In this document: piece by piece, positions 1 to 4,365 of the stretch
Layout: each line of letters starts with the position of its first letter
Numbering within the stretch: the stretch's first letter is position 1
IMG/VR virus record: IMGVR_UViG_2228664000_000050
Location: 1-4,410 of that record
Source: a virus
Lineage: Duplodnaviria; Heunggongvirae; Uroviricota; Caudoviricetes
Strand: one strand, 5' to 3'
DNA: 4,410 bases
Made by a program: the position numbers and the translations under genes
Notes under the pieces: model-generated
What the model saw: the letters and a program-made list of their open reading frames with translations, nothing else
Told to the model about the DNA's origin: nothing
The model's database searches: none

Positions 1-59
1 GATCGGGTGCCTTCGTTGACTTCAACAACGCGCACCCCGTGGTGGTAATCCTGAGCCAT
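1..59 (-). CDS. Tail sheath protein (P2 FI-like), N-terminal 19 codons only; gene continues beyond the window start
   Basis: Reverse complement of 1..59 translates MAQDYHHGVRVVEVNEGTR, matching my recollection of the conserved sheath N-terminus (MSDYHHGV...NEGTR). A strong Shine-Dalgarno AGGAGG lies about 9 nt upstream of the ATG (minus-strand coordinates 74..69). Confidence 0.6.
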   Translation of the reverse strand, partial: MAQDYHHGVRVVEVNEGTR

Positions 60-135
60 AGTGGCGAACCTCCTGATTGGATTAGGCTTCGCCCTATGTT
101 GAAGTGATTGTGCCTGACAAACAGCTAAGCGCAGT

Positions 136-153
136 TGTGTCGTTATTCACACA
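136..153 (-). promoter_or_regulatory. Candidate P2-type late-promoter activator site (TGT-N12-ACA dyad) upstream of the sheath gene
   Basis: The sequence TGTGTCGTTATTCACACA at 136..153 is an exact TGT-N12-ACA element with extended TGTG/CACA arms. It sits in the 142-bp gap between the invertase stop (202) and the sheath ATG (59), about 85 bp upstream of that ATG. No convincing -35 is present, which is typical of activator-dependent late promoters. The exact transcription start and -10 are not resolved. Confidence 0.4.
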
Positions 154-201
154 AAATAACGGTATTTGTCTGCTTGCAGGGATAATCAACATAATGCTGA
201 T

Positions 202-768
202 TCAGGGGGATTCATTGATCTTATTTGCCGGAAATTTTCTATAAATGGTAGAAACGCCTACATCAAAAATCAGTGCAATACGCTGTCTTGATTCTCCGGC
301 CTCGAGTAAACGCCCAATCTGTGCCCACTGTTCGGTAGTCAACTTAGGACGGCGTCCACCTACTCTGCCTTTGGCACGAGCTACAGCCAGCCCTGCCCTG
401 GTACGTTCAACTATCAGTTCGCGTTCCATTTCAGCCAGGGCACCCATGACATGAAAAAAGAAACGGCCCATTGGGGTACTGGTATCAATACTGTCAGTCA
501 GGCTTCTGAAATTCACACCACGCTGGCGCAACTCTTCTATCAGCGTAACAAGATGCCGCATACTGCGCCCCAACCTGTCCAGCTTCCAGACAACCAGCGT
601 GTCTCCTGCCGATAGTGTCCTGAGTAGTTTTTTCAGCCCCGGTCTGTCGGACTTAGTGCCACTGATTTTGTCCTCAAAAATCTGCTCACATCCCGCGCAG
701 TTCAGTGCATTACGTTGCAAATCGGTGTTCTGGTCATTTGTTGACACGCGTACATAGCCAATAAGCAT
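202..768 (-). CDS. Serine-recombinase DNA invertase (Pin/Gin/Cin/Hin family)
   Basis: The translation MLIGYVRVSTNDQNTDLQRNALNCAGCEQIFEDK...DRPGL...GDTLVVWKLDRLGRS...GRFFFHVMGALAEMERELIVERT has the catalytic-serine motif YVRVSTNDQ and a C-terminal helix-turn-helix (RIALIFDVGVSTIYRKF). The ORF opens at 774 (MIM...), but AGGGGG directly abuts that first ATG and lies 6 nt before the ATG at 768, which also reproduces the canonical MLIGYVRVS start. Confidence 0.93.
   Translation of the reverse strand: MLIGYVRVSTNDQNTDLQRNALNCAGCEQIFEDKISGTKSDRPGLKKLLRTLSAGDTLVVWKLDRLGRSMRHLVTLIEELRQRGVNFRSLTDSIDTSTPMGRFFFHVMGALAEMERELIVERTRAGLAVARAKGRVGGRRPKLTTEQWAQIGRLLEAGESRQRIALIFDVGVSTIYRKFPANKINESP
665..747. 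promoter_or_regulatory. Putative Fis-dependent recombinational enhancer inside the 5' part of the invertase gene
   Basis: In Hin, Gin and Cin the enhancer lies within the first ~100-150 bp of the invertase coding region. The matching region here (codons ~10-36, STNDQNTDLQRNALNCAGCEQIFED) contains a Fis-like G-N13-C 15-mer, GTGTCAACAAATGAC, on the minus strand at 733..747. The second Fis site is not clearly identifiable. Placement is by positional homology only. Confidence 0.3.
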
Positions 769-795
769 GATCATCCCCCTGAATAAAAACCGGAG

Positions 796-1302
796 ATGAT
801 GCCAGTTAGCTGTTACCTCTGCATTTTCTTAAACGTTGGTTTAGGAGAAGGTTCGGCATTACCCGTTGGTGTGCCTGTTCCGTGGCCTTCAGCTACACCA
901 CCGACAGGCTGGTTGAAATGCAATGGTGCAGCTTTTTCTGCTGAAGAATACCCGGAGCTGGCAAAGGCTTACCCGACAAATAAATTGCCTGATTTACGTG
1001 GTGAGTTTATTCGTGGCTGGGATGATGGGCGTGGAGTGGACAGTGGGCGAGCGTTATTGAGTGCTCAGAGCGATACGCTGCAAAATATTACAGGTAGCTT
1101 TTTGGATATGACCACGGGGCCAAATAATAATACTGTCGGCGCATTTACCTCTTCAACATTGACACCAAATCTCGCATCAATTGCGACAGGTGGTACATAT
1201 AAACAGGCGAATTATTATTTTGATGCATCACGTGTTGCCAGAACATCAACGGAAACACGTGCGCGAAATATTGCATTTAACTTTATCGTGAGGGCTGCAT
1301 AA
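796..1302 (+). CDS. Alternative tail-fibre C-terminal cassette (S'v-like, collar-type receptor-binding domain), promoterless and silent in this orientation; functional part begins at the crossover core near 837
   Basis: The frame opens just after a TAA at 784..786 and covers site 1. It encodes GLGEGSALPVGVPVPWPSATPPTGWLKCNGAAFSAEEYPELAKAY...LPDLRGEFIRGWDDGRGVDSGR, the pattern of the phage tail collar domain (CNG...YP.L...LPDLRG.F.RG). The only ribosome-binding candidate is a GGAG 0-3 nt from the ATGs, too close to be convincing. Its stop overlaps the downstream tfa start (TAATG at 1300..1304). Confidence 0.8.
   Translation: MMPVSCYLCIFLNVGLGEGSALPVGVPVPWPSATPPTGWLKCNGAAFSAEEYPELAKAYPTNKLPDLRGEFIRGWDDGRGVDSGRALLSAQSDTLQNITGSFLDMTTGPNNNTVGAFTSSTLTPNLASIATGGTYKQANYYFDASRVARTSTETRARNIAFNFIVRAA
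824..849. repeat. Invertase crossover site 1 (hix/gix/cix/pix-like 26-bp imperfect dyad) at the invertase-proximal border of the invertible segment
   Basis: TTTTCTTAAACG-TT-GGTTTAGGAGAA. Its reverse complement, TTCTCCTAAACCAACGTTTAAGAAAA, matches site 2 at 15 of the first 17 positions and fits the family pattern TTCTnnnAAACC-AA-GGTTTnnGAnAA. The central dinucleotide is TT at 836..837. Confidence 0.8.
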
Positions 1303-1904
1303 TGGATAACGCTGTATTAAATAGCGAGCTTATTGCCACGAAGGCGGGGAATATTACCGTCTATAGCTATGATGGTGAAACTCGGGAATATATTTCCACT
1401 TCAAATGAATATCTTGCCGTTGGTGTTGGTATCCCGGCATATTCCTGTCTGGATGAACCTGGTATACATAAGGCTGGTTATGCAATCTGCCGTTCGGCAG
1501 ATTTAAACTCATGGGAATATGTGCCAGACCATCGCGGTGAAATCGTCTATAACACCGAAACGGGAGACGCCAAAGAAATCACAGCTCCGGGTGATTACCC
1601 CGAAAATACAACCACTATCGCCCCGTTAACGCCATACGATAAATGGGATGGTGAGAAATGGGTGACGGATACCGAGGCACAGCATAGCGCCGCAGTAGAT
1701 GCAGCAGAAGCACAGCGCCAGTCGCTGATGGATACAGCAATGGCTTCCATTAGTCTGATTCAGTTGAAATTACAGGCCGGACGGAAGTTGACGCAGGCAG
1801 AAACAACCCGACTTAACGCCGTGCTGGATTACATTGACGCGGTGACGGCAACAGATACCAGCACAGCGCCGGACGTCATCTGGCCTGGACTGCCGGAGGC
1901 GTAG
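1302..1904 (+). CDS. Tail fibre assembly chaperone (Tfa/U'-like), cognate to the silent alternative cassette
   Basis: This 200-aa ORF is coupled to the upstream cassette by a TAATG overlap. Its C-terminus, TATDTSTAPDVIWPGLPEA, carries the conserved Tfa C-terminal motif that is also present in the other chaperone. Confidence 0.8.
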   Translation: MDNAVLNSELIATKAGNITVYSYDGETREYISTSNEYLAVGVGIPAYSCLDEPGIHKAGYAICRSADLNSWEYVPDHRGEIVYNTETGDAKEITAPGDYPENTTTIAPLTPYDKWDGEKWVTDTEAQHSAAVDAAEAQRQSLMDTAMASISLIQLKLQAGRKLTQAETTRLNAVLDYIDAVTATDTSTAPDVIWPGLPEA

Positions 1905-2319
1905 GCCATTCAATATCGGGTGCTGTTGAAGTATCAACACGCATCAGCAGCACACGGTATTTCTTCCATTGGGTGAGAGTTGAAGTTTCTTCATCAGTTG
2001 CAATGCCCGCATCAACAGCATCCTGACGCCAGGATATTTCACTGTCAGCTTTTGCACGAAATGTGGCTTTCATGTTTTCTGCATCTGATATTTTCTGTTC
2101 TGGTGAAAGCGGCGGCTCATCAACCCATGCAAGGGCCCCTGAAACCATTCTCAGCATTTTTCCTGTTGGCTTATTTCCCCCATTAAATCTGACAGCATCC
2201 TCATCGCTGATTTCAATACCATCCTGCGGCCATGTCCCCTCCTTGATATAACTTTCGTATAGCGCTGCGTTGTAGATTGCATTTTCGGAAGGGCTGTAAA
2301 CACTTTTAACTTTATTCAT
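1876..2319 (-). CDS. Tail fibre assembly chaperone (P2 G / Mu U-like), cognate to the currently expressed fibre
   Basis: This 147-aa ORF starts 4 bp after the tail-fibre stop, with GGGAGA about 6 nt upstream of its ATG. Its C-terminus, LLMRVDTSTAPDIEWPTPPAVQAR, resembles the P2 G C-terminus (RVDPANPEWP). Its 3' end overlaps the convergent tfa' by 29 bp (1876..1904). Confidence 0.85.
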   Translation of the reverse strand: MNKVKSVYSPSENAIYNAALYESYIKEGTWPQDGIEISDEDAVRFNGGNKPTGKMLRMVSGALAWVDEPPLSPEQKISDAENMKATFRAKADSEISWRQDAVDAGIATDEETSTLTQWKKYRVLLMRVDTSTAPDIEWPTPPAVQAR

Positions 2320-2323
2320 TCTG

Positions 2324-3763
2324 TTATCTCCCTTTCGCTATATAGCAAAGATTAAACCCACCGCTACCTGACATACGGGCTGTAAAACCCGTTCTTGAAG
2401 TACCAGTTGAGTTAACTCCATAAGCAGGCATGGTTGTTGGAGAAAGCAGAGACTCCTGGATATCTGCCATTGTCAGTGTAATTGATTCGACCCGCGCGGG
2501 GAAAGGTAGCGGGAAAACAACATTCGTCCCTGTCTGTCCAACGGGGAAACCGAAAATACCCCATTGTGTAATTACCCCATCCGGCCCCTTACTCCATCCA
2601 GATTTAGGATTCGGCCAGTCTGCTGCTCCAGAGTGCCCCGTTGTAAAACTACTCATATCTGGTACTTGCCCGGTATCCGTTCCGACGTTCCTCGTTGCCG
2701 CTTCTCCCAAACCAAGGTATGTGAGAAGACCAGCTACATCCTTTCCACTCAAATTGGTAAGCGTATTGTCCAGCGGTTGTTTACCTGACAGCGCATTAAG
2801 CATTGTCGTGGCAAAGTTCGGATCATTCCCCAGTGCCGCCGCCAGTTCGTTCAGTGTATCCAGTGCAGCAGGTGCAGAACCCACCATTCCTGCAATCGCC
2901 GATTTCACAAAAGCCGTAGTGGCAATCTGTGTATTGTTGACCGACTGCGCCGCAGTAGGTGCTGTTGGCGTTCCGGTGAGTGCCGGACTCGACAGCGGCG
3001 CTTTTAGTGCCAGCGCATTGTTAATGGTGGTACTGAATTTCGGGTCATTGTTAATGGCTGCGGCAATTTCTTTCAGTGTGTCCAGCGTGGCTGGCGCACC
3101 GTTAATCAGAGCAGTAATAGCGGCCTGAACAAACTCAGTGGTCGCAATCCGCGTGGTGTTATTTCCTGCTGCAGGCGTCGGCGCTTTTGGTTCTCCGGTA
3201 AATGTCGGATTATGTTTCTGCGCATACTGGGTATGAGGATCTTGTGCGGCAATGTGGTTTCTCATCTGGTCATCCACATACAGCTTTAATTCCAGGACTT
3301 CATCATCCACGTATTTACGGGTTGCCAGCACTACAGCAGGGTCGATTTTCAGGGTGATATTGTCCGTACTGCTGGTAATCAGCACCATGCGCACGGTCTG
3401 GGTGCGCCCGCTGCCTTCAGCCAGTTGCGGCTTATAGCTTTCCGGGCAGTTGCCCACGGCAATCAATGCCCCGGACTCATCAAACAGGCCCACTTCACGT
3501 ATCCACCAACCGCCCTCGTTTTCAGGGATCACCTGTTCAGCAATAATCTGGCTACTGTTCTGCGGGTCGATATAAAGCATATTCAGCGCAGCCCGGCGTT
3601 TCTCATTTACCAGTGCCGTCTGCTTTGCGTCCGGCGTTGGCAATACTCCGCCGCCATCGCCCACCGCCATATGGGTAATTTTTAGCGGCACACCGAGCGC
3701 GGCGGCGCTGGCAAGTTTCGCCGCGCCAATATCCGTCAGCAGGGTATAAAATTTTGTGCTCAT
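2324..3763 (-). CDS. Tail fibre protein (P2 H-like), 479 aa: constant N-terminal shaft (aa 1-350) fused to the currently expressed variable C-terminal cassette (aa 351-479)
   Basis: The N-terminus MSTKFYTLLTDIGAAKLA...MAVGDGGG...GGWWIREVGLFDESGALIAVGN...ESYKPQLAEGSGR and the block LNELAAALGNDPNFATTMLNALSGKQP closely match P2 H-type fibres. The start overlaps the gpI-like stop (ATGA). Crossover site 2 lies at codons 346-354. Confidence 0.95.
   Translation of the reverse strand: MSTKFYTLLTDIGAAKLASAAALGVPLKITHMAVGDGGGVLPTPDAKQTALVNEKRRAALNMLYIDPQNSSQIIAEQVIPENEGGWWIREVGLFDESGALIAVGNCPESYKPQLAEGSGRTQTVRMVLITSSTDNITLKIDPAVVLATRKYVDDEVLELKLYVDDQMRNHIAAQDPHTQYAQKHNPTFTGEPKAPTPAAGNNTTRIATTEFVQAAITALINGAPATLDTLKEIAAAINNDPKFSTTINNALALKAPLSSPALTGTPTAPTAAQSVNNTQIATTAFVKSAIAGMVGSAPAALDTLNELAAALGNDPNFATTMLNALSGKQPLDNTLTNLSGKDVAGLLTYLGLGEAATRNVGTDTGQVPDMSSFTTGHSGAADWPNPKSGWSKGPDGVITQWGIFGFPVGQTGTNVVFPLPFPARVESITLTMADIQESLLSPTTMPAYGVNSTGTSRTGFTARMSGSGGFNLCYIAKGR
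2702..2727. repeat. Invertase crossover site 2 (hix/gix/cix/pix-like) embedded in the tail-fibre coding sequence at the constant/variable junction
   Basis: TTCTCCCAAACC-AA-GGTATGTGAGAA. The left half and core match the family pattern, while the right half is degenerate, as expected for a site constrained by coding sequence. It lies over codons LLTYLGLGE; the core AA at 2714..2715 is codon positions 2-3 of Leu350 on the minus strand. Confidence 0.8.
2774..3178 (-). repeat. Diverged tandem duplication (~190 bp / ~60 aa unit, two copies) within the tail-fibre shaft (phage tail fibre repeat)
   Basis: Protein copy 1 (aa ~196-256) is TPAAGNNTTRIATTEFVQAAITALINGAPATLDTLKEIAAAINNDPKFSTTINNALALKAP. 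Copy 2 (aa ~266-330) is TPTAPTAAQSVNNTQIATTAFVKSAIAGMVGSAPAALDTLNELAAALGNDPNFATTMLNALSGKQP. DNA similarity is still visible, for example ttcagtgtgtccagcg at 3072..3087 versus ttcagtgtatccagtg at 2851..2866. Confidence 0.7.
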
Positions 3764-4365
3764 GGATTCACTCTCATTGTGTCAATAACATGGACCGCCC
3801 CGCCTTCATGCGCGGTGCCGCCGGAAATAATTGTTTCGTTGATATACGGATAGATCGTGATTTCTTCGCCAAGATAGCTGGCGGCTCCCACCCAATGCGG
3901 GCCGCTGGTCTGCAGGTTGATGGACATGCCGATCATGTGACGGCTACATGGTTTGGCATCGCTTATCAGTCGCTCAAGTTCCAGATAGGTATCTTCAGTG
4001 ATGCCCTGGTCCTGCACGCCGATATCCAGACGAAACGTGCCCGGTGCCTCTCCGATCTGCCACCACTCAATAATGCGGATCAGAAAGCCGAACGGCTCCA
4101 CCACCCGCCGCACGGCACTGGTGGTCCCTTTATGCTGATGAATATAAAAAGCATCCTTCACCACCTGGCGCTTGACGCTTTCTGTCCAGCCCTCGTCCCA
4201 GCGATCCACAGAGAACGCCCAGGCGAGATAAGGCAGGAAACTGATCGGACAGGTTGCCGGATTCCACAAGTCACGCAGCGGCACCTGCAGATCAGAAATC
4301 CCGCTACAGGTCTGCGCCAGTCGGCGCTCCAGTGAAGTTGAACCCGGTGGCAGCAGACTATTCAT
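3760..4365 (-). CDS. Baseplate/tail protein, P2 gpI-like (201 aa)
   Basis: The translation contains LWNPATCP...LPYLAWAFSVDRWDEGW...HKGT...RRVVEPFGFL...WW...PGTFRLDIGV...GITE...ERLISDAKPCSRH, matching my recollection of P2 gpI. It is coupled at both ends by ATGA overlaps and sits immediately upstream of the tail fibre gene, as in P2 (J-I-H-G). Confidence 0.85.
   Translation of the reverse strand: MNSLLPPGSTSLERRLAQTCSGISDLQVPLRDLWNPATCPISFLPYLAWAFSVDRWDEGWTESVKRQVVKDAFYIHQHKGTTSAVRRVVEPFGFLIRIIEWWQIGEAPGTFRLDIGVQDQGITEDTYLELERLISDAKPCSRHMIGMSINLQTSGPHWVGAASYLGEEITIYPYINETIISGGTAHEGGAVHVIDTMRVNP

Follow-up and report, generated by a model that had tools for sequence, protein, structure and literature searches.

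A Pin/Gin-type DNA-inversion switch for fibre tip and chaperone in the tail module of a P2-like Escherichia coli prophage

Fibre switches of the Pin/Gin/Cin type have been textbook systems since the 1980s. In the G segment of phage Mu, inverted by Gin, and the C segment of phage P1, inverted by Cin, a constant N-terminal part of the fibre goes with two cassettes (Sv and Sv'), each of which has its own chaperone (U and U'). Similarly, the P-segment of the e14 element in Escherichia coli K-12 has the gene order stfP-tfaP-tfaE-stfE-pinE, and inversion between its 16-nucleotide (nt) repeats, TTGGTTTGGGAGAAGG and CCTTCTCCCAAACCAA, has been measured by quantitative polymerase chain reaction (qPCR) and sequencing (PMC12529663). 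Inversion has also been detected by whole-genome sequencing in the P2-like prophages of enteropathogenic E. coli (EPEC) E2348/69, where the coexistence of variants at a locus with three repeats was validated by PCR (PMC4272514). Here we describe a switch of this kind in the first 4,410 nt of the virus record IMGVR_UViG_2228664000_000050; this whole stretch of DNA is referred to as the window in the following. The window is the tail-fibre end of the late operon of a P2-like (Peduoviridae) prophage that is equipped with a Pin/Gin-type DNA-inversion switch, and the background of the element is that of a P2-like prophage of E. coli.

A sequence-only reading of this DNA had located all four parts of such a switch, namely an invertase, two crossover sites, alternative fibre cassettes and their chaperones, and each of them was found again at the coordinates it had given. 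The two imperfectly palindromic 26-bp crossover sites are present at 824..849 and 2702..2727 in inverted orientation. The left site, TTTTCTTAAACGTTGGTTTAGGAGAA on the plus strand, faces the invertase with its outer half, and its inner half encodes the residues GLGE of the silent cassette. The right site, TTCTCCCAAACCAAGGTATGTGAGAA on the plus strand, is located inside the fibre gene; its reverse complement, TTCTCACATACCTTGGTTTGGGAGAA, is identical to the left site at 20 of 26 positions. Strand exchange is predicted at the central dinucleotides, TT (836-837) in the left and AA (2714-2715) in the right site, which are identical in inverted orientation. A generic repeat finder with a 9-nt seed missed both sites, and direct comparison and a consensus search were needed to find them. 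Using the degenerate consensus TTNTCNNAAACCWWGGTTTNNGANAA with at most three mismatches, exactly two sites were obtained in the window, as opposed to 0.00 expected from 200 shuffles; this consensus was built after the window's own sites and those of Mu, P1 and e14 had been viewed, so that the test is not fully independent. A third site was not found anywhere in the window, neither at up to seven mismatches to one of the two sites nor at up to three mismatches to the consensus. With only two sites, the system has two states and is no shufflon, which rules out multiple inversion as in p15B Min or at the three-repeat EPEC locus.

The two sites can be aligned without gaps and in register with those of characterised systems, consistent with the hix/gix-like nature that had been proposed for them. 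The identity amounts to 24/26 and 22/26 with the K-12 e14 sites, up to 21/26 with the P1 cix sites (cixL and cixR) and 17-18/26 with Mu gix. It is the e14 site adjoining pinE that is shared with the left site at 24 of 26 positions, and the 16-nt repeats reported for e14 are 15/16 identical to 836..851 and to 2700..2715.

Between the two sites, alternative cassettes and their cognate chaperone genes reside on opposite strands, an arrangement that had been suggested before and is now confirmed by the Pfam domains of the encoded proteins. The present fibre comprises 479 amino acids (aa; 3763..2324, minus strand), with an N-terminal Phage_tail_fib and a terminal Gp53-like_C domain. Its constant N-terminal part is of the P2 gpH type and consists of 350 codons outside the segment (2714..3763, minus strand; Phage_tail_fib at residues 1-150). 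The currently expressed C-terminal cassette, 129 codons plus the stop codon (2324..2713, minus strand), is in frame with the constant part and harbours Gp53-like_C at fibre residues 394-478. The gene for the currently expressed assembly chaperone of 147 aa (1876..2319, minus strand; Pfam Caudo_TAP, E 8.4e-33) starts 5 nt past the fibre stop. On the plus strand, the silent alternative cassette of 154 codons (838..1302) has a Collar domain (Pfam, E 1.6e-15) and is 55% identical to K-12 stfE. It is followed by the silent gene for its cognate TfaE-like assembly chaperone of 200 aa (1302..1904; Caudo_TAP, E 3.8e-32), which is 89.5% identical to K-12 TfaE. In the current orientation, the collar cassette is devoid of both a promoter and an N-terminal fibre part, and an ATG at 796 or 799, outside the segment, gives a short open reading frame (ORF) of 168 aa at 796..1302. 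In E. coli LF4-1 and in phage 500465-1, this cassette is joined to the fibre.

Inversion of 836..2715 in silico kept the reading frame and resulted in a fibre of 504 aa, composed of the 350 constant residues and 154 instead of 129 from the cassette, with the gene for the 200-aa chaperone directly downstream. This agrees with the earlier proposal that inversion replaces the last 129 aa of the fibre by a 154-aa collar cassette and exchanges the chaperone along with it. The right site thus lies within the fibre gene without breaking its frame, the 479-aa and 504-aa forms are both uninterrupted, and each cassette is followed by its own Caudo_TAP chaperone gene, the two sets being on opposite strands, as is expected of an invertible fibre. 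Both cassettes begin with the same four residues, GLGE, which are encoded by the inner half-sites; accordingly, the two fibres have 354 residues in common and differ in 125 versus 150.

As a separate observation, the convergent genes of the two chaperones share 29 nt at their 3' ends (1876..1904), and both strands of the overlap encode the conserved C-terminal motif TSTAPD(V/I)xWP. K-12 tfaP and tfaE likewise overlap by 29 nt.

Both orientations of the segment exist in public genomes, with the junctions exactly as predicted. The native interval 500..3100 matches E. coli 22-245 and 22-250, and the same interval after inversion in silico equally well matches E. coli LF4-1, in one piece with 100% coverage and 98.0% identity. 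In the annotation of LF4-1, a 504-aa fibre is followed by tfaE, and the Gp53-like cassette and the 147-aa chaperone adjoin the invertase; the LF4-1 fibre is 95.4% identical to the predicted 504-aa form. When LF4-1 was flipped at the site centres and compared to 22-245, 1903/1905 positions were identical within the segment and 2871/2872 across the right flank, which holds fibre and baseplate genes. LF4-1 and 22-245 carry the same prophage tail module, differing essentially only by a flip at these sites. A further case is provided by the isolate assembly GCA_013424725.1, in which contig JACCOQ010000033.1 is identical to 1..768 at 768/768 positions and encodes the identical invertase. In the 192 nt upstream of the invertase gene, however, this contig agrees with the in-silico inverted form at 192/192 positions versus 112/192 for the native form.

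Comparison of the natural isoforms reveals that the outer flanks and outer half-sites stay and that the inner flanks swap, which places the exchange within a 15-bp interval including the central TT. These alignments strongly indicate that the segment inverts and that the exchange occurs inside the sites. The sequence-only reading had considered both crossover sites resolved to the base. By homology this part stands, as the crossover point given in the annotation of P1 falls on the site centre; the natural isoforms, however, narrow the exchange only to the 15 bp. Homology to the window ends at about position 2718, in the right site, in records that have the same segment and invertase but other constant fibre parts and in which the adjoining genes are annotated as pinE. 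A private A (GGTTTAGGAGAA) occupies position 843 of the window (position 20 of the left site) instead of the G (GGTTTGGGAGAA) present in every close relative examined, a synonymous difference (TTA/TTG, leucine). With this A the inner half-sites can be told apart, and from both junctions of a flipped exact copy the crossover would be mapped to the 7 bp TTGGTTT.

Further indications come from contig ends. Three contigs from independent assemblies that encode the identical invertase (L010, L011 and L012) end at 849/850, where the left site has its inner edge. Another one with the identical invertase, a metagenome scaffold (L013), ends inside the left site, at 842. The contigs breaking at the left site are 20-35 kb in size and originate from independent isolates and metagenomes. 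Contig ends at the point where the two orientations diverge are the expected assembler output for reads of mixed orientation and are suggestive of mixed populations. Because the ends fall at the left crossover site, such switches are often split across contigs. The switch is probably active.

The invertase gene (202..768, minus strand) encodes a small serine recombinase of 188 aa with the catalytic serine at position 9 (Ser9; S9 of Gin and S10 of Hin), which Pfam and homology assign to the Pin/Gin/Cin/Hin subclass. The protein consists of a Resolvase domain (residues 5-137, E 8.8e-53) and an HTH_7 domain (residues 140-183, E 1.4e-15). The likely start is the ATG at 768, which is preferred because GGGGGA is located 6 nt upstream on the coding strand and because homologues begin with MLIGY; a longer ORF starting at 774 is probably an artefact. 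As had been anticipated, the protein is readily matched to Pin, Cin and Gin, the identity being 87% for K-12 PinE, 85.6% for the Fels-2 invertase, 78.6% for P1 Cin and 74.6% for Mu Gin. The identity to the invertase of phage 500465-1 is as high as 99.5%, and an identical protein is present at NCBI (WP_160191139.1). The top match among solved structures is Gin (3UJ3, E 1e-92), at 312 bits versus 120 bits for gamma-delta resolvase. The motif YVRVSTNDQ aligns to Gin, and 3UJ3 is an S9A mutant at the position of the catalytic serine. Residues K46, K47 and R50 align to K-R-x-x-K of Gin and correspond to positions 47, 48 and 51 of Hin. Similarly, Q-I-G-R-L-L (Q-x-x-R-L) aligns to Q-A-G-R-L-L of Gin and corresponds to Hin positions 151, 154 and 155 in helix 1. 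For these assignments we take the Hin numbering to be that of the present invertase plus one. The basic residues at Hin positions 47, 48 and 51, together with Q151, R154 and L155 in helix 1 of the DNA-binding domain, are those uniquely conserved in Fis/enhancer-dependent invertases (PMC3798978). All these features place the protein, by sequence, among the Pin/Gin/Cin-type DNA invertases.

Two side observations concern the surroundings of this gene. A perfect 12-nt inverted repeat (200..211 and 773..784, ATTCAGGGGGAT and ATCCCCCTGAAT) brackets the invertase ORF exactly and overlaps its stop codon and ribosome-binding site; it may be meaningless, as by our own estimate about 0.6 such pairs occur by chance per 4.4 kb. 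In addition, the DNA homology to e14 pinE stops in the 3' end of the invertase gene (202..320).

A Fis-dependent recombinational enhancer, which the sequence-only reading had not mentioned, would constitute a fifth part of the switch. It is predicted inside the invertase coding sequence (CDS) at 684..747 (minus strand; CDS nt 22-85), based on positional homology to P1. Two Fis-like 15-mers of the form G-N13-C, at 747..733 and 698..684, together cover 64 bp; the distance between the centre of the nearer 15-mer and that of the left site is about 97 bp. In the P1 record the Cin enhancer is annotated as nt 19-90 of the cin CDS, and the same interval of the invertase gene (750..679) is 56/72 identical without gaps. 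In the Hin system, a 65-bp enhancer is located about 100 bp from hixL (PMC3798978), and the 64-bp span and the distance of about 97 bp match these dimensions. Thus, an enhancer is likely to reside at about 684..747.

The proposed course of inversion follows the Hin/Gin paradigm for synapsis, cleavage and rotation (PMC3798978). Dimers of the serine invertase would bind both 26-bp sites, which would then synapse with the Fis-bound enhancer (about 684..747) at a supercoiled branch. All four strands would be cut at the central 2 bp (836-837 and 2714-2715) via phosphoserine links, one pair of subunits would rotate by 180 degrees, and religation of the strands would leave the 1.88-kb segment flipped. 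Fis dependence and the exact 2-bp position of cleavage are what we infer from this analogy. As a consequence, the C-terminal receptor-binding cassette would be exchanged, the 129 codons of the Gp53-like type for the 154 codons of the Collar type, taking the fibre from 479 to 504 aa, and the chaperone would be exchanged with it (the 147-aa Tfa for the 200-aa TfaE-like Tfa). A lysogenic culture would accumulate both orientations, and an induced lysate would hold two types of virions with different fibre tips. Following the precedent of Mu and P1, the two fibres might recognise different receptors, and the lysate might accordingly be heterogeneous in host range. Overall, we are highly confident that the window belongs to a P2-like prophage with a Pin/Gin-type inversion switch that would exchange the fibre tip together with its chaperone.

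A number of observations weigh against this interpretation. The metagenome contig, a single JGI/IMG contig of 4,410 bp that makes up the whole window, runs through both sites in one orientation, and one orientation thus seems to have prevailed in the source population. Position 20 of the left site is occupied by the private A described above, a base that functional sites of P1 (cix) and Mu (gix) also have there. No convincing sigma-70 promoter was found for the invertase gene in a promoter scan that performed at chance (5 found vs 4.7 expected). A synonymous-codon test of CDS nt 19-90, inside versus outside, in comparison with pinE, gin and cin yielded p values of 0.12, 0.64 and 0.31; because the test was not significant, the enhancer is assigned on positional homology. 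A weaker point is that the exact 504-aa product is absent from the protein collection; the exact 479-aa fibre is, however, likewise on record from one contig only, according to an exact protein look-up.

Other explanations have to be weighed against these data. It is improbable, in our view, that inversion mainly serves the host. According to this explanation, the ORF starting at ATG 796/799 would yield a free receptor-binding fragment which, together with the chaperone, would mask a surface receptor and block other phages. For e14, inversion of the P-segment was reported to create StfE2, which inhibits adsorption of T2 (PMC12529663). The ORF at 796..1302 is analogous, GGAG is located just upstream of it, and its 143-aa equivalent in the flipped LF4-1 is annotated as a CDS; the similarity of the collar cassette and its chaperone to K-12 stfE and TfaE points in the same direction. 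However, the scan did not detect any promoter placed to drive the 796 ORF, the spacing between GGAG and ATG is poor (0 or 3 nt), and the StfE2-forming cassette of e14, which is of the StfP type, is not the one present here. Moreover, fibre switching suffices as an explanation for what is apparently a complete P2-like phage. In a related scenario, which we also judge improbable, the 'silent' cassette would be expressed in lysogens together with the adjoining chaperone; whichever cassette faces the invertase would be read via the left site, and the switch would at the same time act as a phase-variable defence.

Still less credit is given to a fossil or locked switch, in which the parts would have been kept by descent and this copy would invert negligibly or not at all, be it due to the private G-to-A exchange, to lacking expression of the invertase or to a defective prophage. 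The assembly through both sites in one orientation, the private A and the lack of a recognisable invertase promoter in the scan would all fit such a copy. However, all ORFs of the window are intact, the identical invertase occurs in isolates whose contigs break at the site, and the A at position 20 is shared with functional P1 and Mu sites. In addition, one isolate, that with contig JACCOQ010000033.1, carries the flipped form over 960 nt that are otherwise identical.

It is very unlikely that the genes belong to a P2-type tailocin (an R-type bacteriocin) whose killing spectrum is switched by inversion. The 4.4-kb window holds only tail genes, and for carotovoricin Er, inversion of DNA within the fibre gene has been documented, as cited in PMC4272514 (reference 46 therein). 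However, the closest full-length relative, 96.8% identical across the whole 4,410 nt, is part of a complete P2/186-like prophage with genes for capsid, scaffold, portal, terminase, lysis, replication, CI/CII and Ogr, and thus with structural, replication and immunity functions, and the same module is present in sequenced phages such as Escherichia phage 500465-1 (Peduoviridae) and Cartapus. The tailocin explanation was rejected on the grounds that the closest relative is a complete prophage. Finally, a chance inverted repeat beside an unrelated resolvase, with no site-specific inversion, can be dismissed as next to impossible: although the generic repeat finder did not report the sites, the consensus search, the alignment in register with four characterised systems and the natural isoforms flipped exactly at the sites are all at odds with it.

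The genes surrounding the switch conform to its assignment to a P2-like tail module. At the left end, the 5' end of a tail sheath gene (1..58, minus strand), a homologue of FI, is the next gene downstream of the invertase. This identity is based on E. coli 22-245 and phage 500465-1, in which the annotation of the collinear region reads tail sheath protein; likewise, Phage_sheath_1 adjoins the invertase in contigs that encode the identical invertase. At the right end, a P2 gpI-type baseplate protein (3760..4365, minus strand; Pfam Tail_P2_I, E 1.5e-53) is encoded directly upstream of the fibre. On the minus strand, the order is therefore gpI, gpH-type fibre, 147-aa chaperone, invertase and sheath, with Tail_P2_I and Phage_tail_fib as domains of the P2 family. 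The expected Pfam domains are present in all six ORFs; in NCBIfam, no family scored above the cut-off for any of five proteins.

The window has a single TGT-N12-ACA element, TGTGTCGTTATTCACACA at 136..153. It falls into the 143 bp that separate the stop codon of the invertase gene from the start of the sheath gene, and the sheath ATG follows about 86 nt downstream of it. A TGT-N12-ACA dyad is a hallmark of Ogr-activated P2 late promoters, and we presume that the element is probably the PF-type promoter of the sheath operon. If so, the invertase gene is located between two late operons. On the other side of the gene, a weak terminator-like hairpin followed by a T-run (788..807, minus strand) lies between the left site and the invertase start, and terminator-like hits overall amounted to 11 as compared to a shuffle mean of 4.4. 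This hairpin could restrict the extension of late fibre transcripts into the invertase gene.

Records named as Klebsiella phages (including OM835953.1) also contain the tail module together with the invertase, the identity being about 95%, and the module thus crosses genera. One record, 'Klebsiella phage KP12 clone KP12_3', is classed as Vequintavirinae, yet the piece concerned is P2-like, with the fibre divided between two CDS; the record gives the impression of a co-assembled prophage or of mislabelling.

Annotation pipelines call the alternative cassette (796..1302 in the window; 3799..4302 in L001 and 2798..3229 in L005) a CDS in its own right, named 'phage tail protein' or 'gp53-like domain-containing protein', starting from an ATG outside the segment. 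Such a CDS is the counterpart of the K-12 stfE pseudogene, and its short leader, MMPVSCYLCIFLNV, is the same in both orientations.

The system itself is an ordinary, already known fibre switch of the e14/Mu/P1-type Pin family, residing in a P2-like prophage, and sequences 98-100% identical to it are already public in E. coli assemblies in both orientations. Its description is of use mainly for annotation. The CDS at 796/799..1302, called a 'phage tail protein', is to be regarded as a promoterless alternative fibre tip, and short-read contigs tend to break exactly at the crossover sites. Predictions of host range for such prophages should weigh both the 479-aa and the 504-aa fibre.

Among the described systems, Hin/hix of Salmonella, which serves flagellar phase variation, can be compared to the switch. 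Both have the same subclass of recombinase and 26-bp sites and, with the enhancer predicted here, the Fis/enhancer architecture and a spacing of about 100 bp between site and enhancer, and the Fis-contact and helix-B residues of Hin are conserved in the present invertase. In contrast, Hin flips a promoter and lies inside its own segment, whereas here the invertase is located outside and coding cassettes are exchanged. With Mu and P1, the switch has in common the constant fibre N-terminus with two cassettes and their chaperones, the 26-bp sites with a 2-bp core and, as predicted here, the enhancer inside the 5' end of the invertase gene. The segments of Mu (about 3 kb) and P1 (4.2 kb) are larger than that of 1.9 kb here, the cassettes belong to other families, and the virion type here has a P2-like tail. 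In P1, cin faces the segment and cixL overlaps its 3' end, whereas in Mu and e14, as in the window, it is the 5' end of the invertase gene that faces the site.

The e14 P-segment with PinE is similar in its whole layout, including an invertase transcribed away from the adjoining site and convergent chaperone genes, and in the size of the segment (1797 bp in e14, PMC12529663, versus 1878 bp from centre to centre here). DNA identity between the two is 84-89% in the invertase gene and the left site as well as in the TfaE-like chaperone gene and part of the collar cassette. However, e14 is a defective lambdoid element, whereas in the window a P2 gpH-type fibre is involved and the switch is located between gpI and the tail sheath gene. 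In addition, a Gp53-like cassette and a 147-aa Tfa take the place of StfP and TfaP; the chaperones are 41% identical over 76 aa, and the cassettes gave no match. The module is a mosaic of an e14-like half, comprising the invertase, the left site, part of the collar cassette and TfaE, and a half unlike e14, made up of the Gp53-like cassette and the 147-aa chaperone.

Finally, the invertible loci of other P2-like elements (those of EPEC E2348/69, that with the Fels-2 invertase, and those of phages 500465-1, Cartapus and pro483) occupy the same position in a P2-like tail module. Phage 500465-1 has the collar/TfaE half in common with the window, but the DNA of its other cassette is unrelated. At one EPEC locus there are three repeats and four variants, as compared to two sites and two variants here. 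As a group, these P2-like loci differ from the window only by the combination of cassettes.

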